Part shown: positions 4,260 to 28,973 of the stretch, piece by piece
How the letters are laid out: each line of letters starts with the position of its first letter
How positions within the stretch are numbered: the stretch's first letter is position 1
Assembly: GCA_963775425.1 (NCBI GenBank)
Contig: CAVZJB010000009.1
Coordinates: 272,616-336,615 of the forward strand
Reading direction: 5' to 3'
Origin: an uncultured delta proteobacterium
GTDB lineage: Bacteria > Myxococcota > UBA727 > VGSZ01
Length of the DNA: 64,000 bases
Notes under the pieces: generated by a model
What the model was told of the DNA's origin: nothing
The model's database searches: none
Seen by the model: the letters and a program-made list of their open reading frames with translations, nothing else
Position numbers and translations under genes: made by a program

Positions 4260-6701
4260 CTATTGCACGACGGCGGCGAGGTTGTCGGTGCAGGCGTAGC
4301 TGTCGTCGAAGCTGCTCTGGTCGTAGGTCGGGTTCAGGCCGCCGCCCACCGAGAGGGTGTCGCCGTCGACGGTGATGGTCCCCGAGATCTGGTTGGTGAC
4401 GCCGTCGAGGCTGCCGTTGACGGCGCTCAGGTCGGTGTCGGGGATCTCGATCTCGAAGGTCTTGCCCTGCGCCTCGAGCGTGGCGTGGGCGTTTCGCAGG
4501 TGCACGTTGGAGATGCGCGCCACCGGCGTCGGCACGTCGAAGGTCTGGGTGTCGTCGGCGCGGGCGCCGGTCGCGGGCTCCACCGTCGCCGACAGCGTGC
4601 CGTCGTGGATGGTGAGCTTGCCGATGGGCTCGCTCTCGCCCGCCGCCAACGGATACGTAACGAACTCGTGGAGCGCCGTGTTGTCGAGCCAGATGGTCAC
4701 GCTCTCGTCGTTGCGCGGCTCGATGGCGTCGATGATCAGGAACTGGGTGGTGCGCTCGCCGAGGACGGTGCGCGTGGCGTTCACGTCAGCGGTGCCCTGG
4801 TAGAACGTCGCGCCGCCGCTGCAGTCCTCGCTGAGCGTCTGCAGGTTCGGGTCGCCGACGGTGCAGCCGGAGACGTCCCACGTCATCGAGCCCATGTCTC
4901 CCGGGTTGCCCTGAACGTCGCTCGGGAAGATCAACACGCCGAGCTGGTCCTCGAAGCCGCAGTTGCTGTCGCCGTTCACCATGGTCGCCACCGTGCCCAC
5001 CGTCTGGATCACCAGGCGCGCGGCGCCGTCGGCGATGACCTGGTGGAAGTTGCACTGCGCGTCGCTCGCCGGCACCGCCATGTTGGGCGTGCAGGCGTAG
5101 CTCGCGTTGAACGCGGCGGCGTCGTAGTTGGGGTCGAGGATGGGGGCGCCCTCGAGGGGGATCTGGTAGTCGGTGCCGTTGACGGTGATGTCGCCGGCGA
5201 GCTTGTTCTCCACGCCGTCCTTGTTGCCGTTTTGCGCCGAGAGGCTGCTGCCGTCGATGTCGATGCGCAGCGCGTTGCCCGCGGCGCGCACGATGCCCAC
5301 CGCGCCGGGCTGCCACGCCAGGTCGTCGAACGTGGACACGGGCGTGGGGATGCTGCACGCGCCGGTGAGCGTGTCCTGCGCCATGCGCGGCTCCATCCGT
5401 CCGTCGATGCCGCCCTCGACGACCTCGAGGGATTGGTCGGAGACGCTGTCGGTGACGCGAAAGTTCTGGAAGTCGATGTGGAACGTGAACGACGCAGGGT
5501 CGCGTGACGTCGGGATCACCGGCTGCGACGGGTCGCCGCTCAGGCGGCCGCGCAGGCGCATGGTCCCCGTGATGAGCGCGGTGCCCTCGGCGTAGGTGGT
5601 CTTGCCCGAGCAATCGCGCGCGACCTCGGTGGGCGTGGGGAACACCAGCGCGCAGGGTTGATCGATGCGGAACACGGCCTCGCCGCCCTCGTGGCCGACG
5701 TCGCCGGTGATCTGGGCGTTCGCGATGACGCCGGGGCTCATGAAGCCGCAGCGGGTGTCGGCGGCGGCGACGGAGATCACGTTGCCCACGTTGTTCACCG
5801 TGAGCTTGGCGGCGCCGTCGGCGAGCTGCGGCGTGAGGTCCTTGCAGACGTACTCCACGGGCAGCTTGAGGTCGTCGACGCAGGCGAACGAGTTGGCGAA
5901 CTCGTCGGCCTTGTAGTCCGGGTCGAGCACGTGGTCGTCGTTGAGGTCGACGTCGCTGTCCCAGACCGTGATCTTGCCCTCGAGGTAGTTCTCGAAGTCG
6001 CCGTAGACGCCGAGCTGCGCCTTCTCCTCGAGCGACGGGACGTCGACGTCGAAGATGTGGCCGTCGTCGTCGACGGTGTAGGTGGCGTCCGTGACCTTGA
6101 TGCTGTTGAGCGTGACGTCGCTGGTGGGGACGCCGCAGACGCCGAGCGAGATGTTCTGCGCGAGGTGGATGCTCGCGCTCTCGTCGACGTGGCCCGTATG
6201 CATGGTCAGGCCGGTGGTCTTGTCGCTCAAGCGGATCTGGTAGTCCTGCACGTCGGCGCTGACGGTGATGGCGACGGCGTCCGGGGACGACGGGATCACG
6301 GGGTTTTCGGGGTTGCCGGTGAGGGTGCCGGTGACGGTGCGGGTGGCGCTCAAGGTGACCTTGCCGCTCACCGTGGTCTTCTCCCCGTTGCAGTCTTCGC
6401 TGGGGGCCCCGCCCGGGACCAGCGTGTCGCCGAAGTCCATGACGCAGTTGTCGACGGTCCAGGTGACGGTGCCGGGGCCGCCGAGCTCACCGTCCTCGAC
6501 GTAGTTGTCCTGCACGTGCTTCGAGGAGAAGCCGCAATTCGTGTCGGCGTCGGCGAGCGCGATGAGCTTCACCGCGTTTCGCACCGTGAGGCGCGCGGCG
6601 CCGGCGCCGACGTCCTTGGGAAAGAATTGCTCGATCTCGCACCCGCCGCCGAGCGCCACGGCGGAGAAGGTGAAGACCAGGATGATGCAGCGCGTAAGCA
6701 T
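4260..6701 (-). CDS. Large probable lipoprotein built from three tandem repeats of about 260 aa (unknown family)
   Basis: Start at MLTRCIILVFTFSAVALGGGC (signal peptide ending in Cys). The rest of the 1578-aa track ORF upstream is Arg-rich junk. Repeat units are at about 5814-6599, 5025-5813 and 4263-5024. Each begins AA(R/K)L(T/V)... with D(A/S)(D/N)xxCGF and ends LDP(D/N)Y...(F)(A/D)xSYAC...ADG. Confidence 0.7.
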   Translation of the reverse strand: MLTRCIILVFTFSAVALGGGCEIEQFFPKDVGAGAARLTVRNAVKLIALADADTNCGFSSKHVQDNYVEDGELGGPGTVTWTVDNCVMDFGDTLVPGGAPSEDCNGEKTTVSGKVTLSATRTVTGTLTGNPENPVIPSSPDAVAITVSADVQDYQIRLSDKTTGLTMHTGHVDESASIHLAQNISLGVCGVPTSDVTLNSIKVTDATYTVDDDGHIFDVDVPSLEEKAQLGVYGDFENYLEGKITVWDSDVDLNDDHVLDPDYKADEFANSFACVDDLKLPVEYVCKDLTPQLADGAAKLTVNNVGNVISVAAADTRCGFMSPGVIANAQITGDVGHEGGEAVFRIDQPCALVFPTPTEVARDCSGKTTYAEGTALITGTMRLRGRLSGDPSQPVIPTSRDPASFTFHIDFQNFRVTDSVSDQSLEVVEGGIDGRMEPRMAQDTLTGACSIPTPVSTFDDLAWQPGAVGIVRAAGNALRIDIDGSSLSAQNGNKDGVENKLAGDITVNGTDYQIPLEGAPILDPNYDAAAFNASYACTPNMAVPASDAQCNFHQVIADGAARLVIQTVGTVATMVNGDSNCGFEDQLGVLIFPSDVQGNPGDMGSMTWDVSGCTVGDPNLQTLSEDCSGGATFYQGTADVNATRTVLGERTTQFLIIDAIEPRNDESVTIWLDNTALHEFVTYPLAAGESEPIGKLTIHDGTLSATVEPATGARADDTQTFDVPTPVARISNVHLRNAHATLEAQGKTFEIEIPDTDLSAVNGSLDGVTNQISGTITVDGDTLSVGGGLNPTYDQSSFDDSYACTDNLAAVVQ

Positions 6702-6749
6702 GCAGGAATCCCTCCCGGGAACGACTTGGGTCATGTATCGCACCTGCAT

Positions 6750-7934
6750 ATGCGACCGTTGCCTACATGGTCTGACCATCGGGCGTTTGACCGAGATCTG
6801 CGCGAGATCTCGTCGACGACGCAGGGGCGCGCGGCCCCGGCGTCGGGCGCCCCCTCCCCGGCGGGCCGCGGGGTCACGCGCCGCTTCTACTGGGAGCTGG
6901 TCTCGCTGCGGCGATCCGGGGGCCCGCAGGCGGCGGCGGTGCTCGCGGACCGGCGCATGGACGTGGCCCTCTCGGCGCTGCGCGCGGCCCGGCCGGAGGA
7001 GCCGCTGCGCATCGCCTGCGTGCTCGAGCTCGCCGACGAGATGGACGTGGCGCCGCTGTTGCGCGCGCGCGCGGCCCTGGCCCGCCACGAGATCGCGCTC
7101 GATCTCTGGCCGCAGCTCGCCGGCGCCGAGCGCTTCCTGAACACGGGCACCGCCGAGATCTTCCAGCAGCGGTTGCTGCCGCTCCTCGACGTGCTCGCCC
7201 GCAGCGACGATGGCTGCGACATCGGCGTCGCCCTCGACCTCGAGCCCAACGAGGCGCTCGCGCGGGCGGCGTGGGAGATGCGGGCGCCGGGCTCCTCGCT
7301 CTTCGAGCGCGCGCGCGCGCTCGGTCGCATCGCGAGGAGCGTGGGCGGCAGCGTGGCCATGGCGCGCCAGGGGCGCCGGGACCTCGCCGAGCTCGCGCGC
7401 GACCTGCAGGCGCGCGATCTCCCGGTGCACGTCGCGGTGATGCCGCCGCTGTCGTCGTCCACGAGTGACACGCTGCGCGCGTGGGCGCTCGGCTGCCCCG
7501 CCGTCGACGACGACGGCCGGCCGCTCTTCGGCCTTCAGGCCGCCATGTGCTACGCGTCGCTCACCCGGCGGCTGCCGGAGCGCCTGCGCGCCAGGGTGGA
7601 CCCGCGGCCCCTCGACGACGACGACGACGACGCGCGCGACGCGGACCGCCGCCGCGACAAGGACACGCTCGCCTTGTGGGCGGCCCGCCACCGCACCGCC
7701 TTCGACGCCGTCGTCGTCGGCATGACCGCCACCGGCATCCTCGGCGACGAGCCCGTCTACGAAGACCCCGCGGTGCTCGCCGAAGACGTGCGCGCCATGG
7801 AGGCCCTCGGCTTCTCGGACGTCGCCCTCTACGCGCTCGAGGGCCTGTTCTTCGGCCCCGCCGGCCCCGGCGACGACCTTGCGCTCCGCCCCGACGTCGA
7901 GCGCTGGCTCGGCGCCGCGTTCGGCGAGGCCTGA
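6750..7934 (+). CDS. Hypothetical protein
   Basis: Only the 3' third of track ORF 5658..7934 has protein-like composition and high GC3. Candidate starts are ATG 6750, GTG 6939 and ATG 6957. It has an acidic DDDDDDARDADRRRD tract. No family recognised. Confidence 0.45.
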   Translation: MRPLPTWSDHRAFDRDLREISSTTQGRAAPASGAPSPAGRGVTRRFYWELVSLRRSGGPQAAAVLADRRMDVALSALRAARPEEPLRIACVLELADEMDVAPLLRARAALARHEIALDLWPQLAGAERFLNTGTAEIFQQRLLPLLDVLARSDDGCDIGVALDLEPNEALARAAWEMRAPGSSLFERARALGRIARSVGGSVAMARQGRRDLAELARDLQARDLPVHVAVMPPLSSSTSDTLRAWALGCPAVDDDGRPLFGLQAAMCYASLTRRLPERLRARVDPRPLDDDDDDARDADRRRDKDTLALWAARHRTAFDAVVVGMTATGILGDEPVYEDPAVLAEDVRAMEALGFSDVALYALEGLFFGPAGPGDDLALRPDVERWLGAAFGEA

Positions 7935-7948
7935 GGAGACGGCCGCAC

Positions 7949-8890
7949 CTACGGGCCGATGGACCAGGCGGCGAACGAGTCGAACGACGTCACCATGCGG
8001 TTGGACCGGAGCACGACGCCGCCGGCGGGCGTGGCGGTGGCGTCGACGACGGTGGCCACGCCCTCGAGCTGGCACTGCAGCGAGCCGTCGAGCACCGCGC
8101 GCAACAAGAGCGTGGGTCCGACGATCTGATCGGGGCTCGCGAGGTCGCTCGACGCGCGGAATTCGCTGGCGTCGTTGTTCACCAGCCCGTCGATGACGAG
8201 CGCCTGCGCGCCGTCGCCGATGACGGGGAAGCACATCACGCCGTCGGCGTCGCCGGTCATGCCGACGCCGATGCCCGCGCTCGCCGTGTTGAACTGGCCG
8301 CCGAGCTCGAAGCTCTCCACGGTGAAGCGGAGCTCGACGACGATGTGGTCGGTGGGGGCGATGTCGGTGCGCCGCAGGATCTCGGCGTCGGCGGTGGCCG
8401 TGTGATGAAGCTGATCGTTCGAGAGGCTCCATGAGCCGGCGCCGGTCCACGCCGACGAGAGCACCACGCCGTCGAACGCGTCGAACGCGATGAGCACGTC
8501 GCCGCCCTGGTCGGGCCGTGGGTCGCACGCGTCGCCGACGCCGTCGCCGTCGCTGTCGGCCTGGGCCGCGTCCGAGGTGGTGGGGCAGTCGTCGCAGCGG
8601 TCGGCGACGCCGTCGTTGTCCTCGTCGTGGGTGCCGCAGGGATCGCCTTCGCCTTCGCCCTCGCCGCCTTCGCCCTCGCCCTCGCCCTCGCCGAAGTCGG
8701 TGATGCAGTGTCCGTCGCGGCAGACGTGGCCTACGAAGCAGTCGCTGTCGGCGTTGCAGATGACGCCGCTGTCGTCGGGCGGGCAGCCGCTCGTCGCCAC
8801 GATCGCCACGAACACGAGCGCGGCGCGCGCGAGCGCCGCTACGGGCGCGGTGGCGAGGCCGGAGACCGGGGGGCGGCGCATGCGCCGAGG
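7949..8890 (-). CDS. Probable lipoprotein with a (Gly-Glu)n linker, thrombospondin type-3-like Ca-binding repeats and a LamG/concanavalin-like C-terminal domain
   Basis: Start at MRRPPVSGLATAPVAALARAALVFVAIVATSGC. Followed by a Cys-rich knot (CNADSDCFVGHVCRDGHC) and GEGEGEGEGGEGEGEG. Then DEDNDGVADRCDDCP...DSDGDGVGDACD. The beta-rich tail ends SFDSFAAWSIGP. Confidence 0.7.
   Translation of the reverse strand, partial: PRRMRRPPVSGLATAPVAALARAALVFVAIVATSGCPPDDSGVICNADSDCFVGHVCRDGHCITDFGEGEGEGEGGEGEGEGDPCGTHDEDNDGVADRCDDCPTTSDAAQADSDGDGVGDACDPRPDQGGDVLIAFDAFDGVVLSSAWTGAGSWSLSNDQLHHTATADAEILRRTDIAPTDHIVVELRFTVESFELGGQFNTASAGIGVGMTGDADGVMCFPVIGDGAQALVIDGLVNNDASEFRASSDLASPDQIVGPTLLLRAVLDGSLQCQLEGVATVVDATATPAGGVVLRSNRMVTSFDSFAAWSIGP
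8644..8694. repeat. In-frame (GGCGAG)n-type hexanucleotide tract encoding (Gly-Glu)n
   Basis: The plus strand reads cgccttcgccttcgccctcgccgccttcgccctcgccctcgccctcgcc, which is the coding complement of GEGEGEGEGGEGEGEG. Confidence 0.8.
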
Positions 8891-8946
8891 ATAGCGCGCC
8901 GCAGGCGGGGTCGCCGTCTCCGTCGAGAGCCCTACGCGGCCGCGGT

Positions 8947-9300
8947 TCACTTGCAGGCGGCTTCGACCTTGTCGAGCGTCCACGTGTCGGGGCCATAGCG
9001 GCCGAGCACCACGCCGTCGGCGTCGATGAGCCACGCGCCCTTCACGCCGACCTTCACCATGTAGCCGGCCTCGGGCTTCCGGGCGGTCACGGTGGCGCCG
9101 TCGAGCGTGCCCCGCAGGACGCGCGCGACGTCGAGCACCAGCTCCTGTGAGGGGTTCAGCGTCCCCTTGTCGCTCCACGTCGCCGGTTTGTCGGGCGGCG
9201 GCGGCGTCGGCCCCGTGGCGGTGACCTCTTTGACCGTGGCTTCGACGACGAGCGTGGCGAGCGGGATGATCTCGTGGAGGGGCTCGGGGGGCTTGGCCAT
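8947..9300 (-). CDS. Small hypothetical protein downstream of the calpain-like protease
   Basis: 117-aa ORF (MAKPPEPLHEIIPLATLVVEATVKEV...) with good GC3. It starts 20 nt after the protease stop, so it is probably co-transcribed. No family recognised. Confidence 0.5.
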   Translation of the reverse strand: MAKPPEPLHEIIPLATLVVEATVKEVTATGPTPPPPDKPATWSDKGTLNPSQELVLDVARVLRGTLDGATVTARKPEAGYMVKVGVKGAWLIDADGVVLGRYGPDTWTLDKVEAACK

Positions 9301-9319
9301 GCCGGACGTTATCCCGTCG

Positions 9320-11119
9320 TCAGGACACGCTCCACAGGACCGAGTACCACTTGGGCATGTCGTCGAGCTTGAGCTCGAAGATGCCGTCGTTCTTCCCGTT
9401 GCCGCGCGGCTCGGACTCGCCCCAGGGGTTCCTGAGCTTCACCATCTTCACGCCGTTTTTCTCGTAGGCGTCGACGACGGTGTAGGTGTGGTCGCCGTAG
9501 ACGCCGGTGTTGGCGAACAGCGCCTCGTGGCCCGCGTCGTCCTTGGTGCCGAGGCACACCGGGAGCTTGTGCGCGAGCTTGTCCTTGATGATGCGGAAGC
9601 ACGCGTCCTTGTTGCGCGCCGAGAAGTCCTTCTCGAGCGCCGGCCGGCCGAGGACCGCTTCGAAGAGGTCGGCGGAGCTGCCGCCGTCGCCGATGTCGTT
9701 GTAATCGCCGTTGAGCTGCGCCCACGCTTTCTCGAAGAGCGGGAACCACAGCTCCATCTTGTCGCGCGCGGTGGAGTTGGCCGACGAGCCGTACAGCGGG
9801 CCGCCCCAGGAGCGCGTGTAGAGGTCGGCGTCGACGGCCTCAAGGTGCTTCTTCGCGTACCCGTCGCGGTCACGCTTGAGCTCGACGACGTAGAACGTGC
9901 CGTTCGCCGGCAACGGCGGCTCGCCGCGCTTCTTCCTGTCCGCGTTCACGGTCTTCCGGTCGGCGTCGGTGGCCACGCGGATGATCTGCGTGAGCAGGTC
10001 GGGGCGCACGAGCGCGAGCGCCGCCGCCCCCGCCGGCGTGTAGCAGTCGCCGAGGTTGCCCTGCACCACGTCTTCCATGGCGGCGCCGTCCTTGAACAGC
10101 GGCCCCGTGTAGTTCTTGAGGTCGTAGCGCGAGCTGCCGTCGGGCTTGCGATCGTCCTTGTGCGGCTTGGGATCTTCGATCTCCACGGGAGCGCCCGTCG
10201 CGCCGCCCGCGCCGAGCACCGCCGAGGTGCCGGCGATCTCCTTGAAGTCCGTGTTGTTGCGGCCGTCGGTGGCCGCCACCTGGAACGTGTCGCCGGGCTT
10301 GCCGTTCAGCTTGGGGACGCCGGGGAAGCGCCCGGTGTCGTCCATGGTGATGTCGGTCTTTTCGCCGGTGCGCTCATTTTCGAAGCGCAGCACCGCGTAG
10401 GGCTCCGAGATCGGGCGGGAGTTGTTGTTGTTGGCGACGGCGATCTTGCCGCGTCCGGCGTCGGACAGCTCGATGCGCATGAGCGCCACTTCGGCGCCGC
10501 GCTTGTCGGCGCCGAGCTGGTCGGCGCGGATCACCATCCAGGCCGAGGCGTTGCCGTGCGCGTCCCGGGTGCGCACGCGCAGCCAGTCGCCGCCCTTCAG
10601 GTCGGTGGTGCCGGTGAGCCGGCCGGTGGCGTCGGTCTTTCCGAGGACGAAGGTGTCGTCGTCGTGAAGGCGCATCGCGGGGATGGCCGAGAGGTTCAGC
10701 GCCTCCACCGTCACGTTCGGCCCGGCGCTCCCTTCGATCTTCACCTTGCCGCGCACGAGCCTCATGTCGGTGATGTTGACGGGGCCGCTTTGCGGGTTCA
10801 CCGGCGCGCGGCCGACGAGCTGCTCGAGGAAGCGCTGCGCGTCGTCGGCGAGGGGGACGGCGCCGCCGTCGAGGATGGCCTCGACGTCCTTCTTCTCACG
10901 CTTGCTCAAGCCCTCGCGCACGATGGACATGAGCTCCTGCTTGGACACCGCGTTGTCGAGCTGGTCCCGCGCGCTCGTCATCGCGAGGCCGCTGCGGTCG
11001 GCGATGTCGGCGAGGAGGGCCTTCAGATCGTCGAGGCCGGCCTTCTTCGAGCCCGTGAAGGCGCGCGCGAGCTTGTCGACCTCGGCGCGGATGGAGCGGT
11101 CGCGGATGGTGACGGGCAT
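9320..11119 (-). CDS. Calpain-like cysteine protease (peptidase family C2) with a long N-terminal region of unknown function
   Basis: Catalytic motifs occur in calpain order: QGNLGDCY (Cys), GDHTYTVVD (His), VKLRNPWG (Asn). Start chosen at ATG 11119 (MPVTIRDR), which sits 5 nt after a GGAG. No signal peptide. Confidence 0.8.
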   Translation of the reverse strand: MPVTIRDRSIRAEVDKLARAFTGSKKAGLDDLKALLADIADRSGLAMTSARDQLDNAVSKQELMSIVREGLSKREKKDVEAILDGGAVPLADDAQRFLEQLVGRAPVNPQSGPVNITDMRLVRGKVKIEGSAGPNVTVEALNLSAIPAMRLHDDDTFVLGKTDATGRLTGTTDLKGGDWLRVRTRDAHGNASAWMVIRADQLGADKRGAEVALMRIELSDAGRGKIAVANNNNSRPISEPYAVLRFENERTGEKTDITMDDTGRFPGVPKLNGKPGDTFQVAATDGRNNTDFKEIAGTSAVLGAGGATGAPVEIEDPKPHKDDRKPDGSSRYDLKNYTGPLFKDGAAMEDVVQGNLGDCYTPAGAAALALVRPDLLTQIIRVATDADRKTVNADRKKRGEPPLPANGTFYVVELKRDRDGYAKKHLEAVDADLYTRSWGGPLYGSSANSTARDKMELWFPLFEKAWAQLNGDYNDIGDGGSSADLFEAVLGRPALEKDFSARNKDACFRIIKDKLAHKLPVCLGTKDDAGHEALFANTGVYGDHTYTVVDAYEKNGVKMVKLRNPWGESEPRGNGKNDGIFELKLDDMPKWYSVLWSVS

Positions 11120-11151
11120 CGGGACTCCCGGACGAGATGCCCCGTTATCGG

Positions 11152-14482: not shown

Positions 14483-15691
<1,209 letters not shown>

Positions 15692-15739
15692 AAGGCTGAC
15701 GAAAAGCAAGGCTCGTAGCAGCACTCGGCGAAGCCGCCC

Positions 15740-16200
15740 ACAAGGTGGCTCGCCGCGCGGAGTACGTGGCGAGGCACGTCGGCGCGCAAGAACCGCTTCG
15801 CGCCGCTTGTGTCACGCGCCTTCGCGGCGCGGGCCGCGTGCGCCGCATCGGAGATCTCCGGATTGTCGGCATCGGCGAGCACCGCGAGGACATCGGTGAG
15901 GAGCTTGTCGAACGCGGCGCGGTGATCGACGCGGAACCTGGCGAGGACGTCATGACTCGGGCGCAGATCGCCGACGATAAAACGGAAGGCGTCGTCGTTC
16001 GTCGTCAGCCGCGCGATCTCCCGGCCGCTCCCGATCCCTTGGCCTATCGCGTACAGCCACAGCGTCAGGAGCATCCGCGGGCTCGTCATCGGGCGCCCAC
16101 GTGAACCCGTCGAGGTCGAGCACACGGTCGATCAGGCGAGCCGGGTGCTCGGGGCCGATGAGGTCGTCCACGGCCTGGGTCTTCAGCTTGGGCGCTCGGA
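15740..16200 (-). mobile_element. Relic of an IS5/IS1182-type transposase gene (N-terminal domain only, frameshifted, no DDE domain)
   Basis: Two minus-strand frames together read ...VDDLIGPEHPARLIDRVLDLDGFTW / GRPMTSPRMLLTLWLYAIGQGIGSGREIARLTTNDDAFRFIVGDLRPSHDVLARFR. This matches the conserved N-terminal transposase domain. Similarity ends before any catalytic domain, and no terminal repeats were seen. Confidence 0.55.
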
Positions 16201-23680: not shown

Positions 23681-24023
23681 TCACCGGCGGCGGCGGCGGC
23701 GGCGCATGGCGTCGACGTCGCGCAGGGCGGCGGCGAGGACCTCGGGATCGCCGGCGACGAGCCGCAGCCGGCGGGCCCGATCGAGCTTCTTCAGGGCGAC
23801 CTCGAGGCGGCGCGCCTTGGTCTCCGAGCGCAGCGGGTGCGCGAACGCGAGGGCGACCGGCCGCCGGCACCGCGTGTACGAGCCGCCGCGCCCCGCGTTG
23901 TGGGTGGCGAGGCGCTTGTCGAGAATCGTTGGTGACGCCGACGTAGAGCGAGTCGTCGGCGCAGCGTACGAGGTAGACGGTCCACACGCGCGCGGCGCTA
24001 GCGTCCTCGTCCCCGGCCCACAA
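23681..24023 (-). pseudogene. GIY-YIG nuclease family protein (YhbQ/UPF0213-like), interrupted by a +1 frameshift (or a sequence error)
   Basis: Frame 1 reads VWTVYLVRCADDSLYVGVTND. After 23922-23927 the continuation LDKRLATHNAGRGGSYTRCRRPVALAFAHPLRSETKARRLEVALKKL is found one frame over and stops at 23681. Confidence 0.7.
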
Positions 24024-24056
24024 GGCACGCCGCGCGGTTCACGCAAGAGACGGGCG

Positions 24057-27000
24057 TCAGGCCGCGGAGACGTCGACGCGGCTCTTGCCGCCGCCGAGCG
24101 GGACCACGCGGACCTGCGCGCCGATGCGCTCGGCGAGCGCGGGCAGGTGCGAGATGACGCCGATCTGCCGGCCGGTGGCGCGCAGCGCCTCGAGCGCCGC
24201 CAGCGCCGCCTCGAGGGTCTCCGGGTCGAGGCTCGAGAAACCCTCGTCGATGAACAGGGACTCCACCGGCGTCCGCGCCGCCGACAGCGCCGACAACCCC
24301 AGCGCCAAGGACAGCGACACCAAGAAGGTCTCTCCGCCCGACAGCGAGCCCACCGCGCGCGGCTCGTCGCCGCTTTCGCAATCGACGACGACGAGATCGA
24401 GGTCGAAGCGCGCGCGCTTGTCGCCGCCGCCGGCGCGCTCGAGGCGGTAGCGCGGCGCGAGCATCGCGAGCTGCGCGTTGGCGTGCACGAGCAGCGCGTC
24501 GAGCGTGAGGCTCTGCGCGAACACGCGGAAGCGCGCGCCGTCGGCGGAGCCAATCACGTCGCTCAAGCGCTCCCAGGTGAGCGCCCGTGCGCGCTGCGCC
24601 TCGAGCCTCGGGAGGAGCAGCCCCGCGCGCCGCCGCGCATCGTCGTCGCGCGCGAGCGCCGCGCGGGCGCCGGCCCAGCGCTCGGTCGCGACGGCGAGCG
24701 CCGCCCGCGCGTCGTCGACGGTGTCCGGCGCCTGCGCCGGCGCGCCCTCGCCGTGCGCCTGCGCCGCCGACGCGCGCTCCGCGAGCACGGCCTCCGCGCG
24801 GGCGACGGCGTCGTCGAGCGCGCGCACCGCGGCGCGGGCGCGCTCGAGGGCGCCGTCGTCGAGAGCGCAGGCGCGGGCGAGCGCGTGATCGTCGTCGACG
24901 TCGCTGACGTCGCTGACGTCGCTGACGCGCGGCCCGGCGGCGCCGAGGCCCCCGTCGGGGACGGCGGGCCCCCCTCGGGCGAGCCGCCCACCGGGGCGCG
25001 CCGCGCGGCGGGCCGCCTCGAGCGCGGCGCGGGCGTCGTCGTGCGCGCGGCGGGCGCGCTCGTCGCCGTCGAGGGCGCCGGCGCGCCCGGCCTCGGCCTG
25101 GCCGCAGCGCACCTCGGCGGCGGCCAGGGCGACGGCGGCCTCGGCCGCGGCGGCGCGCGCCTCGTCGAGGGCGGCGGTCAGGCGCCCGCGGACCTCGGCG
25201 ACCGACGCGCCGTCGAACAGCGCCGCGCGGGCCCGCAACAGCTCCGCCTCGTGCGCCCGCGCCTCCGCCGCGCGTGACGCCAGCGACGCCTCGCGCTCGG
25301 CGGCGGCGGCGCGGCGCTGCTCGAGCGCGCGCAGGGCGGGCTCGCTGTGCGCGAGCGCGGCCCGGGCGCGCAGCGCGATCTGCTGTTGCGCGCGCAGCCC
25401 CTCGACGCGCGGCTGCAGCGCGCGCAGCAAGGCGCGCGGCGAGGCGAGCGCATCGGCGGACGCGGCGCGCGCGTCCCCCTCCGCGCCGCCGTGCGGATCC
25501 AGGCGCGCGCGCAGAGACGCCGCGCGCTCGTCGCGGGCGACGACGCGGCCCTCGACGTCGTGCACGCGCAGGGCGAGGGCCTGCTCGTCCGCGGCGACCG
25601 CGGCCCCGGCGTCTGCCAACGCGCGCTCCATCGATCGGACGCGCTCGTCCGCGGCGCGCGCCCGGGCGAGCGCCGCGCGGCCGCGGGCGAGGGCGTCTTC
25701 GTCGAGGGCCGGCCCGCGCCGCTCGGCTTCGAGCCGCGCGACGTCCTCGTCGACGCGCGCCTGCTCGCCCGCCGCGTGCGCCAGCGCGCGCTCGATCTCG
25801 GCGGCGCGCGCCCGGGCCGCCGCGGCGCGCTCGCCCTGCCCACGCGCCGCGTCCTCGAGCGCCTCCAGCGGCGCGGCGGGCGCGTCGACCGCGGCGTCGT
25901 CCATCGGCGCGCCGTCGACGGCGGGGTGCGCGCGGCTCCCGCACAGCGGACACGGCTCGCCGTCGCGCAGCCGCGCGCGCCGCGCGCACGAGAGCGCCTC
26001 GCTCGCGCGGGCGCGCGCCTCGTCCGCGGCGCGCGCCTCGTCGACGGCGGCCGCGCGATCTGCGCGCAAGGCCGCGGCGCGGCTGAGCACACGCGCCCGC
26101 TCGGCGTCGAGCGCGCGGCGGTGCATCAAATCGGCCGCGGCCCCGGCGAGGATGCCGGCGGCGTCGTCGACGTCGCCGTCGCCCACCACCGCCGCGAGCG
26201 CCGCGCGCGCCTGGCCCAGCTCCGCGCCGGCGGCCGCGAGGCTCGCCGCCGCTTCGTCGCGCGCCGCGCGGGCCTCGTCCCGGTTGCGGGCCGCCGCGGC
26301 GGCGAACGCGCGCGCGCCCTCGAGCTCGGTGTCGAAGCGCGCGAGCTTGTCGAGGTCTGCCGCCAGCGCCTCCCACGACGGGATCAGCGCCACCAACGAC
26401 GGCTCGCGGGCGAGCACCTCTTCGGCGCGGTGGAGATCGCCGGCCGCCACCGCGCGGCTGACGGTCAGCTCGGCGAGCTCGCGCTCCACGCCGGCGAGCT
26501 CGTCCGCGGCGCGCGCGTGCGCGTCGACGGCGGCGGCGGTGCCGGCGCGCACGATCTGTTCGTCGAGCCGCAGCGCGCGCTCGAGCTCCGGCTCCGCGTC
26601 GGCGAGCACGCGGGCATGGTGGACGAACGCCTCGTCGGCGCGTGCGCGCCGCTCGCGCGCGCTGGCGACGTCGCCGCGCGCCCGTCGCTCGTCGTCACGC
26701 GCGCGCTCCGCCGCCCGCGCCGCACGCTCCGCCGCCGCCCGCGCCGCGCGCTCCGCCGCCGCGGGCGCCCGCAGCGGCCACACCCGCTCGAGCTCCGCGA
26801 GCTCCTGCGCCGCGGGGGCGCTCGCGCGGGCGCGCCGGGCGGCGTCGACGTCGACGGCCGCGGCTGCGGCGGCGCGCTCGAGCTCCAGCGCGCGCTCGTC
26901 GTGCCGCCGGCGCGCCTCGGCCGCCTCGAGCGCCCCTGCGGCGGCGGCGCGCGCGGCGTCGGCGTCGGCGTCGGCGCTCTCGAGGCACCGGCGCTCGTCG

Positions 27001-27687
27001 TCGCCGGCCGGCGGCATGGCGCGCAGCTCGTCCTCGAGGGAGCGCAGCGCGCGCGCCTCCTCCTTGCTGCGCTCGTGGGCCTGCACGGAGAGCGTCGAGT
27101 ACAGATCCGTGCCCGTGATCTTTTCGAGGAGCGCCGCGCGGTCGTCGGCGCGCGCCTTCAAGAAGCTCGCGAAGCCGCCCTGGGCGAGCAGCACCGAGCG
27201 GCAGCACTCGTCGAAGGTGAGGCCGAGGCGGGCGCGGATGTGCTCGAGCGTGTCCTCCTTGCCGTCGCCGGCGCGCTCGCCGGTGACGACGTCATGAAGC
27301 GTGAGCACCTCTTCCTGCAGGCGGCCGAAGGCCTGGCCGCGGGCGCGCCGCACCGTCCAGCGCGCGCGCCACACGCGCCCGTCGACGCCGCTGAAGTCCA
27401 CCTCGGCGAACGCGGTGGCGGCCATCCGGCGCACGAGGCTCTTGGGATCGTTGGCGCGCAGCGACGCGCCGTCCTTCTTGAGCGGAGATCCGCCGCGCCC
27501 CGACAGCCGCGGCGTGCGGTTGAAGAGCGCGAGGCACATCGCGTCGAGGAGCGTGGACTTGCCCGAGCCGACGGGGCCGGCGATGGCGAACAGGCCGAGG
27601 TGGCACAGCGGCGGCTGCGCGAGAATCGACGGCGAAGCCGCCCTTGAGCGACGCGAGGTTGGCGCCGCGGATGGCGAGGATCCTCAC
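24057..27687 (-). pseudogene. sbcC: SbcC-type exonuclease ATPase subunit, N-terminus displaced by a +1 frameshift (or a sequence error)
   Basis: The GTG start overlaps the sbcD stop (GTGA). It reads VRILAIRGANLASLKGGFAVD, the frame breaks at 27622-27627, and it continues LAQPPLCHLGLFAIAGPVGSGKSTLLDAMCLALFNRTPRL (Walker A). A very long Ala/Arg/Glu coiled coil follows, with a CPLCGS zinc hook. C-terminal motifs: LSGGETFLVSLSLALGLS and LFIDEGF. Confidence 0.85.
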
Positions 27688-28973
27688 GGCCGCTCCCCCT
27701 CGTCGGCGGCCCTCGCCGGCACGGTGGACGGCGGCACCGTGGACGGCGGCACCGTCGACGACGGCGCGACGGCCTCCATCAGCTCGAAGAAGGCGCCGCG
27801 GATGTCGTCCGGGACGGCGCCGCCGTAGGTGCGCTCGTAGAGCCGCTCGAGCACGTGAACGGGCTCGATGTCCTGCAGCGAGGCGGCGGCGGCGACGTCG
27901 GCGAGGGGGCCGCCGTCGCCGGCGAGCGCCCGGTGCACGCGCACGAGCCGCACCGGCTTCCCCTCGAGCGCCGCCTCCACGCGCGCGCGCAGGTCGGGGC
28001 ACGGGGCGTCGAGCTTGACGCGCACCTCGAGGAGCGGCCGCGCGTCGACGGGGGCGTCCGGGAGATCGAGCGCGCGCAGGCGGGCGAGGACGTCGTCGAC
28101 GCCGGCGGCGGCCTCGGGGACGCGCAGCAGGTCGACGGCGCGCGGGACGAAGAGCGGGCGGACGCGGGCCTCGGGGAGGTCGACGACGAGCACCTGGTGG
28201 CGGTAGGCGCGCTCGGTCATCGACAGCGGGATGGGCGAGCCGCTGTAGCGGACGTTGTCGCGGCCGGCGACGTCCTGCGCGAGGTGGAGGTGGCCGAGCG
28301 CGACGTAGTCGACGTCGTCGGGGAAGATGTCGGCGGGGAGCGCGTGGACGTTGCCGAACACGGGGCGCTCGCTGTCCTCCGTGAGGCGCCCGCCCTGCAT
28401 GTGGCAGTGCCCGAGCGCGACGAGCGACTGCCCGGGGTGGCGCCGCGCGCGCGCGTGGTCCAGCACGCGGGCGTAGGCGTCGGCGACGCCGGCGACGACG
28501 GCGTCGCTGACGTCGGCGGGCTGGGGCGCGAGGTCCGCCATGCGCAGGAAGGGCAAGGCGGCGCACCACGCCTCGACGTCGCCGCCGTCACCGGTGAGCG
28601 GAACGACGCAAGACGCCGCGTCCACCTCGCCGGACGCGCGGGGCAGGGCCCCAACGACGTGCACGTCGAGCTCGCGCAGGATGGGGCCGGGCGCATCGAG
28701 GCGCGGCGCGGCGTCGTGGTTTCCGCCGATGACGACGATGTCGAGCCGCGGGAAGCGGCGCCGCGCCTCGGCGAGCCAGCGGTAGTACTGCGACTGCGCG
28801 GACGCGGGGGCGTTGCCGGTGTCGAAGACGTCGCCGCAGACGACGACGGCGTCGGCGCGCTCGTCCTCGATGCGATCGAGCAGCCACGCCATGAAGCGCT
28901 GGTGCTCCACGGCCCGCGAGAAGCCGCCGAGGGTCTGCCCCAGGTGCCAGTCGCCGGTGTGGATCAGCCGCAA
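27684..28973 (-). CDS. sbcD: SbcD/Mre11-type nuclease subunit
   Basis: Motifs: MRLIHTGDWHLG, VVCGDVFD, IGGNHD, GHCHMQGG, ALGHLH. The C-terminus carries a 15-bp x3 repeat (STVPP x3) at 27718-27762. Confidence 0.9.
   Translation of the reverse strand: MRLIHTGDWHLGQTLGGFSRAVEHQRFMAWLLDRIEDERADAVVVCGDVFDTGNAPASAQSQYYRWLAEARRRFPRLDIVVIGGNHDAAPRLDAPGPILRELDVHVVGALPRASGEVDAASCVVPLTGDGGDVEAWCAALPFLRMADLAPQPADVSDAVVAGVADAYARVLDHARARRHPGQSLVALGHCHMQGGRLTEDSERPVFGNVHALPADIFPDDVDYVALGHLHLAQDVAGRDNVRYSGSPIPLSMTERAYRHQVLVVDLPEARVRPLFVPRAVDLLRVPEAAAGVDDVLARLRALDLPDAPVDARPLLEVRVKLDAPCPDLRARVEAALEGKPVRLVRVHRALAGDGGPLADVAAAASLQDIEPVHVLERLYERTYGGAVPDDIRGAFFELMEAVAPSSTVPPSTVPPSTVPARAADEGERP

Follow-up and report, generated by a model that had tools for sequence, protein, structure and literature searches.

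The window, the whole 64,000-nucleotide stretch of DNA analysed here, carries on its minus strand a gene for a calpain-type cysteine protease, a known kind of enzyme, directly followed by a gene for a 117-aa partner protein, and this two-gene linkage is conserved among homologous loci. The earlier note on this DNA had read the locus as a calpain-like protease with a small cognate partner, and that reading is supported. The pair may constitute a Myxococcota-specific module, in which the cytoplasmic partner binds the protease and inactivates it in the producing cell; this interpretation is given an even chance of being correct.

Gene layout and the calpain-type protease

The protease gene (minus-strand ORF 11119 -> 9320) encodes 599 aa counted from the ATG, and its start at 11119 is supported by homologues which align from residue 1. 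The 117-aa ORF (9300 -> 8947) begins 19 nt after the protease stop codon, just downstream as had been described, and the coordinates and strand given for both genes in the earlier note are correct. No terminator-like site lies between them on the coding strand, and they are presumably co-transcribed. As judged from sequence conservation, both are real proteins far beyond chance, the protease having more than 130 homologues of full length (573–607 aa; NCBI lists some as 'C2 family cysteine protease') and the partner having homologues in around 600 clusters. The features of the locus are as follows.

11125..11129, minus strand: GGGAG, Shine-Dalgarno-like, 5 nt ahead of the ATG at 11119 (sequence reading)
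9320..11119, minus strand: calpain-type (MEROPS C2) protease gene, 599 aa, stop codon included (ORF list and sequence)
10805..11119, minus strand: N-terminal helical domain, residues 1–105 (AF2: six helices; conserved in the family)
10526..10780, minus strand: first Ig-like beta-sandwich, residues 114–198 (AF2 strands; many invariant residues)
10220..10474, minus strand: second Ig-like beta-sandwich, residues 216–300 (AF2 strands; many invariant residues; holds the NNNN tract)
9323..10123, minus strand: calpain protease core, residues 333–599
10070–10072, minus strand: Asp350, equivalent of a calpain Ca2+ site-1 acidic ligand
10061–10063, minus strand: Gln353, oxyanion-hole residue before the Cys
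10043–10045, minus strand: Cys359, catalytic, in QGNLGDCY
9752–9754, minus strand: Glu456, equivalent of a calpain Ca2+ site-1 acidic ligand
9488–9490, minus strand: His544, catalytic, in DHTYTV
9428–9430, minus strand: Asn564, catalytic, in RNPWG
9301..9319, minus strand: spacer of 19 nt from protease stop to small-gene start (sequence)
8947..9300, minus strand: 117-aa partner gene, predicted NTR/TIMP-like OB fold
9280..9300, minus strand: partner codons 1–7, N-terminal peptide M-A-K-P-P-E-P
9061–9078, minus strand: second invariant patch of the partner, K75-P76...Y80 (invariant columns and model)
8986..9003, minus strand: partner codons 100–105, invariant G-R-Y-G-P-D after the last strand (invariant columns and model)

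The Peptidase_C2 HMM (PF00648), proposed earlier as a check, matches the protease at 82.1 bits (E 4.8e-23, cut-off 23.8) as well as every protease homologue listed, and a phmmer search of the PDB retrieves calpain-1 at E 2e-12. The Cys/His/Asn motifs named in the earlier note were all found in the calpain order, where Cys359, His544 and Asn564 align to Cys115, His272 and Asn296 of calpain-1. These three residues and Gln353 are invariant in 30 homologues, the catalytic motifs occur in all 80 of 80 loci, and the predicted core adopts a two-subdomain protease fold which superposes on solved calpains. At Ca2+ site 1, Asp350 and Glu456 (equivalent to Asp106 and Glu185) are conserved, as is Gly345 (Gly101), while at site 2 Glu570 (Glu302) is kept, the loop after it is some 28 residues shorter and the other ligands have no clear equivalents. 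The active protease would probably need Ca2+. Calpain_III and EF-hand domains gave no match, and the protein stops about 35 residues beyond Asn564.

The N-terminal part is beta-rich and includes an NNNN tract (VANNNNSRP, residues ~229–232), as previously reported. Its helical domain also opens P0348, a 538-aa protein with another C-terminal part, and is present twice in P0327 (998 aa), and can on this evidence be described as a portable module shared with other proteins. The domain has no Pfam family and no sequence relative in the PDB, and neither the protease N-terminal region nor P0348, P0327 and P0316 had a match in PDB, Pfam or NCBIfam. Short forms of the protease (450–480 aa) contain the C2 core preceded by the Ig-like pair alone. 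The Ig-like domains resemble those of adhesins, which suggests extracellular work. Neither protein shows a visible signal peptide or membrane helix, confirming the reported absence of a secretion signal; the Kyte-Doolittle 19-residue mean peaks at 1.2, both N-termini are conserved and hydrophilic, and no export route for the protease is evident.

The partner family and its linkage to the protease

Residues M1, A2, P4, P5 and E6 of the partner are invariant among 56 sequences, with K3 and P7 in at least 90% of them, and in 48 loci the peptide M-A-K-P-P-E-P is preserved through synonymous codon change. Residues 1–3 have a pLDDT below 50, so the N-terminal segment is predicted to be flexible when the protein is alone. 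The predicted fold is an OB barrel of five strands with one helix on its N-terminal and one on its C-terminal side, the topology of NTR/TIMP domains, and NTR/TIMP fold matches rank above generic OB folds in two programs. None of the 56 members matches TIMP (PF00965) or NTR (PF01759) at E <= 1, and the family profile found no relative in the PDB. Remote sequence homology to TIMP-1 was rejected, as hhalign of the partner against the TIMP-1 N-domain reached E 0.23, which is not significant; its register (PPEP/PPHP, LVVEA/LVIRA, KP..GY/TP..CGY) is that of the structural match. The family contains no conserved cysteine and so lacks TIMP Cys1 and the six-cysteine disulfide pattern, the one cysteine near the C-terminus of the present partner not being conserved. 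A Roadblock/LC7 assignment was also rejected, since this Pfam match (E 0.01, 30 residues) is below the cut-off, is found in 5 of the 56 members and conflicts with the predicted all-beta barrel. By these searches the family has no name and no Pfam or NCBIfam model. Partner variants of 142–145 aa carry a 13-residue N-terminal extension which is probably a gene-calling artefact, as GGAG stands 6 nt before the internal ATG.

The earlier note had made the pairing depend on conservation of the small ORF beside homologues, and it is so conserved: the partner lies directly downstream of the protease in 58/80 and 19/26 loci, or about 73% of long forms, with strictly clade-specific presence. Of the 48 homologous loci in which the spacer was measured, 40 have one of -1 to 31 nt, while all other neighbours vary between loci. 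Both proteins are conserved at 40–79% identity and they co-diverge, their identities being correlated with r = 0.88. There are two or three protease paralogues per genome, some of them in tandem, and one partner gene is an orphan. Since about 27% of long-form calpains (22/80 loci) have no partner nearby, including a clade of 15 members with intact catalytic motifs, the protease can occur with no inhibitor gene next to it. In the 22 loci without a partner, no consistent gene takes its place, and convergent change in the partner-less clades was limited to 10 scattered columns, none of them near the catalytic residues. Binding of the partner to the helical N-domain is weakened as a proposal, because the partner accompanies L119, which lacks that domain, and L112, which has a different N-terminal part, and is absent downstream of P0348, which has it.

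Housekeeping genes surround the pair in the window and its counterparts at four homologous loci, with no secretion-system genes in these neighbourhoods. The upstream 406-aa gene (separated by 32 nt), the TSP3 lipoprotein gene downstream and the AMP-ligase gene each occur in 0 of 80 homologous loci; they are placed outside the module, and a larger operon including any of them was rejected. Anti-phage defence was likewise rejected, with PADLOC matching neither member of the pair and neither of the two genes flanking it.

The partner as a candidate inhibitor and other readings

In the proposed mechanism, the first gene would yield a protease whose C-terminal C2 core, with Gln, Cys, His and Asn all intact, follows the helical domain and the two Ig-like sandwiches, and the second would be translated off the shared message a few bases downstream. 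The partner would bind the protease one-to-one and hold it inactive in the producing cell. Its Met1 would be cut off by methionine aminopeptidase, and the freed proline-rich segment A-K-P-P-E-P would occupy the active-site cleft, where its prolines may make it hard to cleave, while the invariant loops K-P-x-x-G-Y and G-R-Y-G-P-D may support it. Separation of the two proteins would activate the protease, and could come about through signal-peptide-independent export, the route of PopC in Myxococcus, or through removal of the partner. Insertion of an N-terminal trunk into the protease is also how TIMPs and Inh, the inhibitor of serralysin, act. TIMPs inhibit zinc proteases via metal chelation, a mechanism ruled out here as the presumed target is a cysteine protease. 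The NTR fold by itself does not imply inhibition, since no inhibitory activity is reported for agrin NtA and the NTR module of PCPE-1 did not inhibit the metzincins tested. It is a tentative and rather doubtful proposal that the partner is the first endogenous inhibitor of a bacterial calpain and the first cytoplasmic, disulfide-free prokaryotic inhibitor of NTR/TIMP type, with A-K-P-P-E-P blocking a cysteine protease.

The same linkage and co-divergence would fit equally a partner which binds the protease as a chaperone, export regulator or adaptor, mediating cytoplasmic retention or substrate presentation, instead of inhibiting at the active site. Most NTR modules are protein-binding without inhibitory activity, PopD is described as blocking the secretion of PopC (PMC6434023), and Cpi1 neutralises Cpe1 with the active site not occluded (PMC12136450). 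However, the strictest conservation of the partner lies in its free, flexible N-terminal peptide, which fits trunk-inserting inhibitors and is untypical of chaperones, and the partner also accompanies calpains devoid of the helical domain, the likeliest export or targeting module; this reading is considered unlikely. Very improbable is an unrelated OB-fold protein, such as a nucleic-acid binder, whose adjacency is incidental, as incidental neighbours would not be expected to persist in some three quarters of long forms at spacers of a few bases while all others change, nor to follow clade boundaries and co-diverge with the protease. The rank of NTR/TIMP above generic OB folds and the short, sub-threshold Roadblock match, unlike the predicted barrel, also stand against it.

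The pair could instead be an interbacterial effector and its immunity protein, the protease being a toxin delivered by its helical and Ig domains into competitor or prey cells. The C-terminal position of the catalytic domain, the small gene directly downstream, the lack of a signal peptide in both proteins, the sharing of the helical domain with proteins of other C-terminal parts (P0348, P0327), the several, partly tandem paralogues and the orphan partner gene are consistent with this. Moreover, fusions to toxin or WXG100 domains exist among bacterial calpain homologues (PMC4631099), and the pairing of papain-like protease effectors with neighbouring immunity genes is established (PMC12136450). 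Nevertheless, Pfam and NCBIfam identify no PAAR, VgrG, Rhs, CdiA, WXG100, MIX or LXG domain in the protease, the inspected neighbourhoods hold housekeeping genes without secretion-system genes, and neither protein is hypervariable, the partner N-terminus being invariant. Whole clades of catalytically intact paralogues lack an adjacent immunity-like gene, and no partner lies downstream of P0348, despite its shared N-terminal module. The effector reading is also held to be improbable, and inhibition within the producer is preferred.

Relation to known calpains and protease-inhibitor pairs

Unlike the eukaryotic calpains (calpain-1/-2/-9), the protease lacks both the CBSW domain (domain III) and the EF-hand (PEF) domain, its core is C-terminal after the helical and two Ig-like domains, and the shortened Ca2+ site 2 is uncertain. 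The partner is predicted to be a folded 117-aa barrel, in contrast to calpastatin, whose long multi-repeat chain is intrinsically unstructured. The Rawlings 2015 survey (PMC4631099) covers bacterial calpain homologues including Porphyromonas gingivalis Tpr, none of them firmly characterised biochemically; like the present protease, they have a C-terminal peptidase domain, lack EF-hands and are mostly without a signal peptide, and some retain site 1 alone. Its text mentions neither Myxococcota nor Deltaproteobacteria and describes neither the architecture of helical domain, two Ig-like domains and C2 core nor a conserved partner gene.

The partner shares the predicted five-stranded OB barrel with flanking helices with TIMPs and NTR modules (agrin NtA, PCOLCE NTR, meteorin and complement C345C), and like TIMPs it begins its domain at the extreme N-terminus, has a conserved Pro-rich segment there and is associated with a protease. 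The N-terminus of TIMP-1 is C-T-C-V-P-P-H-P, to which A-K-P-P-E-P is the counterpart. In contrast to TIMPs, which are secreted metazoan proteins targeting zinc proteases, the partner is bacterial and cytoplasmic with a cysteine protease as presumed target, and has no detectable sequence homology, no N-terminal Cys and none of the three conserved disulfides. The proteases of the staphopain-staphostatin, streptopain-Spi and serralysin-Inh (AprA-AprI) operons carry a signal peptide and a propeptide; the staphostatin fold is an eight-stranded lipocalin-like beta-barrel, while Inh is periplasmic and targets a metalloprotease. These pairs differ from the present one, which joins a family C2 protease to a predicted five-stranded OB/NTR barrel; no staphostatin is among the fold matches of the partner, whose model has five strands and two helices.

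In PopC-PopD of Myxococcus xanthus, a small partner complexes the protease and bars its secretion until a signal (PMC6434023). PopC, from the same phylum, likewise lacks a signal peptide and carries its catalytic domain at the C-terminus behind an uncharacterised N-terminal part, but it is a subtilisin-type serine protease, and secretion, a feature of PopC, is only a proposal for the calpain-like protein. The resemblance of PopD to the partner is one of described function. In Cpe1-Cpi1 (PMC12136450), the product of an adjacent small gene neutralises a cysteine protease, as proposed here, and the two genes co-vary in identity as in the present pair; Cpe1 domains, however, are fused to PAAR, VgrG, Rhs or CdiA in T6SS/CDI loci, with no such domains or neighbours here.

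The locus offers a testable pair of a protease and a candidate cognate inhibitor for the bacterial calpains, which have no described regulator in the Rawlings 2015 survey. If the partner inhibits, it would found a new inhibitor family and extend the NTR/TIMP fold, metazoan and extracellular in the literature retrieved, to the control of a bacterial cytoplasmic cysteine protease; the 'TIMP wedge' would then be far older than animals or have evolved twice. It would also place a calpastatin-like layer on bacterial calpains, governing non-classical release or activation in a phylum of social predators. The family has as many as three paralogues per genome and adhesin-like Ig domains, and may therefore bear on predation, development or cell-cell interaction, which would parallel PopC in Myxococcus xanthus. 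The protease family is expanded in uncultured Myxococcota.

Catalytic core and domain architecture of the protease

The two genes and the putative Shine-Dalgarno sequence lie on one strand of the window, which has a G+C content of about 71%:
11125-11129, minus strand: GGGAG ahead of the protease ATG, read from the sequence
11119 (ATG) to 9320-9322 (stop), minus strand: protease ORF, 599 aa
9300 to 8947, minus strand: partner ORF, 117 aa

The protease adds a member to an established family, and some homologues already bear the generic NCBI name 'C2 family cysteine protease'. It matches the Pfam Peptidase_C2 profile (82 bits, E 4.8e-23; cut-off 23.8) and contains, in the order reported in the earlier note, the calpain motifs QGNLGDCY (Cys359), DHTYTV (His544) and RNPWG (Asn564), the three residues aligning by phmmer against the PDB with Cys115, His272 and Asn296 of calpain-1. 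The PDB matches are calpain-1, -2, -8 and -9 (best E 2e-12). Full-length homologues (573-607 aa) number more than 130, and all those with an organism name come from Myxococcota or 'Deltaproteobacteria' metagenome-assembled genomes (MAGs). Gln353, Cys359, His544 and Asn564 are unchanged throughout an alignment of 30 homologues, and the three catalytic motifs are kept in 80 of 80 genomic relatives. Asp350 and Glu456, which align with the side-chain ligands Asp106 and Glu185 of calpain-1 Ca2+ site 1, are likewise invariant among the 30, while Glu570 (Glu302 in calpain-1) is the sole assignable residue of site 2, because the loop after it is shorter. Calpain Ca2+ site residues are listed in the survey of Rawlings, where some bacterial homologues have site 1 only (PMC4631099).

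Neither protein has a hydrophobic N-terminus, in agreement with the lack of a secretion signal noticed earlier, and no membrane helix is present in either (top 19-residue Kyte-Doolittle mean 1.2). Signal peptides occur in only 3 of 66 surveyed bacterial calpain homologues, and their absence here is therefore typical rather than special; none of the 66 is firmly characterised (PMC4631099). The pair opens a direct way to characterise a first bacterial calpain by experiment.

With residues 1-320 as query, a full HMMER scan retrieved 136 relatives, many of which are short forms of 450-480 aa that lack the helical domain and consist of the two Ig-like domains and the C2 core; others (about 650-750 aa) carry additional N-terminal sequence. 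The helical domain (window 10805-11119, minus strand) by itself also heads P0348, a 538-aa protein whose unrelated C-terminal part contains 'GLCHAWSW' and is possibly another Cys-His enzyme, and is found twice at the start of P0327, a beta-rich repeat protein of 998 aa; it is therefore a portable module. P0348 and P0327 (loci L083/L084) have no relative in Pfam, NCBIfam or PDB. In the literature searched, neither the helical-Ig-Ig-C2 architecture, nor its expansion in uncultured Myxococcota, nor a conserved calpain partner with predicted NTR/TIMP topology, which is the chief new element, is described.

Linkage and probable co-inheritance of the partner gene

The small ORF directly after the protease gene is confirmed, with a spacing of 19 bases after the stop instead of the 20 nt given earlier. 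A single-sequence search finds 106 homologues of its product, and a profile search 594 clusters; those among the matches listed are unnamed proteins of 108-145 aa without Pfam domains, and no Pfam or NCBIfam model covers the family. Among species-representative genomes, scanning confirmed 176 calpain relatives. The analysis covered the best 80 of these loci, which all come from MAGs, nearly all of them labelled Myxococcota. The partner profile matches in 58 of these 80 loci; the gene is directly downstream on the same strand in 57 and upstream in one (L007). None of the other neighbours in the window (a 406-aa gene 32 nt upstream, the downstream TSP3-repeat lipoprotein, the AMP-ligase) recurs in the 80 loci. 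Where the spacer from protease stop to partner start was measured (48 loci), it spans -1 to 31 nt in 40.

At 70% identity the partner is all-or-none per calpain clade (23/23, 9/9, 5/5, 3/3 etc. versus 0/15, 0/3, 0/2), and, by contig names, partnered and partner-less paralogues coexist within genomes. Pairwise identities of protease and partner correlate (r = 0.88), a pattern that fits inheritance and duplication of the pair as one unit. Seen from the partner genes instead, three of the four on long contigs directly follow a C2 gene (582, 593 and 736 aa), the fourth being an orphan. An independent metagenome scan (51 loci) placed the partner with 19 of 26 long forms (73%), the same frequency as in the genome set, and with two of nine forms lacking the canonical helical domain, namely L119, a true short form of 466 aa, and L112, which has a different N-terminal part; two further short forms lack the partner. 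As L119 and L112 are partnered and no small partner gene lies downstream in the P0348 loci, the partner accompanies the Ig-C2 part and not the helical module. Roughly one in four long-form calpains, their catalytic residues intact, has no adjacent partner, and the partner-less clades show no convergent changes marking a lost interface.

Tandem calpain paralogues occur at L081 (10001-14137), where a long form, its partner, another C2 gene in two pieces of 394 + 123 aa and a CxxCxxCC protein come in that order, at L095 (2680-6837), where only the second of two long forms is followed by a partner, and at L033 (2550-5044), a tandem pair with no partner. The orphan partner P0217 (L086, 4001-5551; 108 aa) misses the variable loop and adjoins a 387-aa protein without significant family match, with no calpain adjoining; the same MAG also carries a normal calpain-partner pair (L005).

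Partner sequence and possible modes of action

Across 56 partner sequences, M1, A2, P4, P5, E6, Q52, G64, K75, P76, Y80, G85, G88 and G100-R-Y-G-P-D105 are invariant, K3 and P7 are nearly so, and cysteine is nowhere conserved. The N-terminus over the 58 loci reads M-A-(K/I/L/V)-P-P-(E/D)-x, 48 of them matching M-A-x-P-P-E-P with Ala and Pro codons that differ synonymously, so selection acts on the N-terminal peptide. The first codons (window 9280-9300, minus strand; 48 loci) favour A/T-ending forms (CCT for Pro4 in 32/48 and for Pro5 in 27/48; GAA for Glu6 in 43/48) in genomes of about 70% G+C, a bias that may help coupled translation by leaving the translation start free of structure. Partner variants with an annotated length of 142-145 aa (P0219-P0226) pair with longer calpains (736 aa in L088, 2755-3186, the one locus inspected). 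The internal start at MAKPPEP, with a GGAG 6 nt ahead of its ATG, is likely the true one, and gene calling has probably added the 13 extra N-terminal residues in error.

Sequence methods detected no relationship of the partner to TIMP/NTR proteins, and hhalign against the TIMP-1 N-domain was not significant (E 0.23). Its register sets PPEP on PPHP, LVVEA on LVIRA and K-P..G-Y on T-P..C-G-Y, so that the partner's three invariant patches would fall on three TIMP elements, namely the N-terminal segment, C-D connector and E-F loop, which form the inhibitory ridge. The NTR fold by itself does not imply inhibition: none of the metzincins tested was inhibited by the PCPE-1 NTR, and inhibition by agrin NtA has not been reported.

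The pair fits an established arrangement, a protease encoded beside its own inhibitor or immunity protein, and the best-supported reading is a protease with a dedicated cytoplasmic inhibitor. Both proteins are probably co-translated from one message, given the short spacer and the lack of any terminator-like site between the genes on the coding strand. By the established specificity of methionine aminopeptidase, Met1 before Ala2 should be removed; the A-K-P-P-E-P segment would then be free and could sit in the catalytic cleft yet resist cleavage. The protease would be released by export without a signal peptide or by removal of the partner. A precedent from the same phylum is PopC of Myxococcus, a protease without a signal peptide that is complexed with PopD, which blocks its secretion until starvation (PMC6434023). 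The serralysin inhibitor Inh relies on its N-terminus for inhibition. TIMPs also rely on their own N-terminus (PMC2871463), but their zinc chelation cannot apply to this cysteine protease. Direct inhibition by the partner is put at even chances, and the N-terminal wedge geometry is a tentative, rather doubtful proposal.

Alternatively, the partner may bind and govern export or substrate choice while leaving the active site unblocked, for which Cpi1 and PopD, as described, are precedents. An interbacterial effector-immunity pair would accord with the C-terminal catalytic domain, portable N-terminal module, paralogy and orphan partner gene, and has precedents in Cpe1-Cpi1 (PMC12136450) and in bacterial calpains fused to toxin domains. 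However, no delivery domain or secretion-system linkage was found, and both proteins are highly conserved. The inspected neighbourhoods consist of housekeeping genes without T6SS, CDI, Rhs or mobile-element context, and no PADLOC model matched. That the partner is an unrelated OB-fold protein is unlikely, as the linkage is conserved, clade-specific and close-spaced.

Other features of the window

Near the pair, the one mobile-element trace observed is a DUF772-type transposase fragment (15559-16125, minus strand; 188 aa, E 6e-9), which lies about 4.4 kb away from the protease gene. Also near the pair, the products of 7949-8881 (minus strand) and 14483-15691 (plus strand) are predicted secreted proteins or lipoproteins in which the signal sequence is followed by long Gly-Glu (GEGEGE...) repeats. 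The former also has thrombospondin type-3 repeats and a weak MtsC-like match. In L001, a Gly-Glu repeat of this kind occurs downstream of the calpain gene. The 1578-aa ORF at 4260-8996 (minus strand) is largely a high-G+C artefact, within which the plausible gene starts near 6713 and encodes a lipoprotein of about 817 aa; its product has no Pfam match but contains a signal sequence with Cys after 'ALGGG' and internal repeats of about 250 aa. A stretch of about 4 kb at 24001-28000 has a G+C of 0.79-0.81, compared with 0.70-0.75 elsewhere, and overlapping ORFs of great length occur on both strands.
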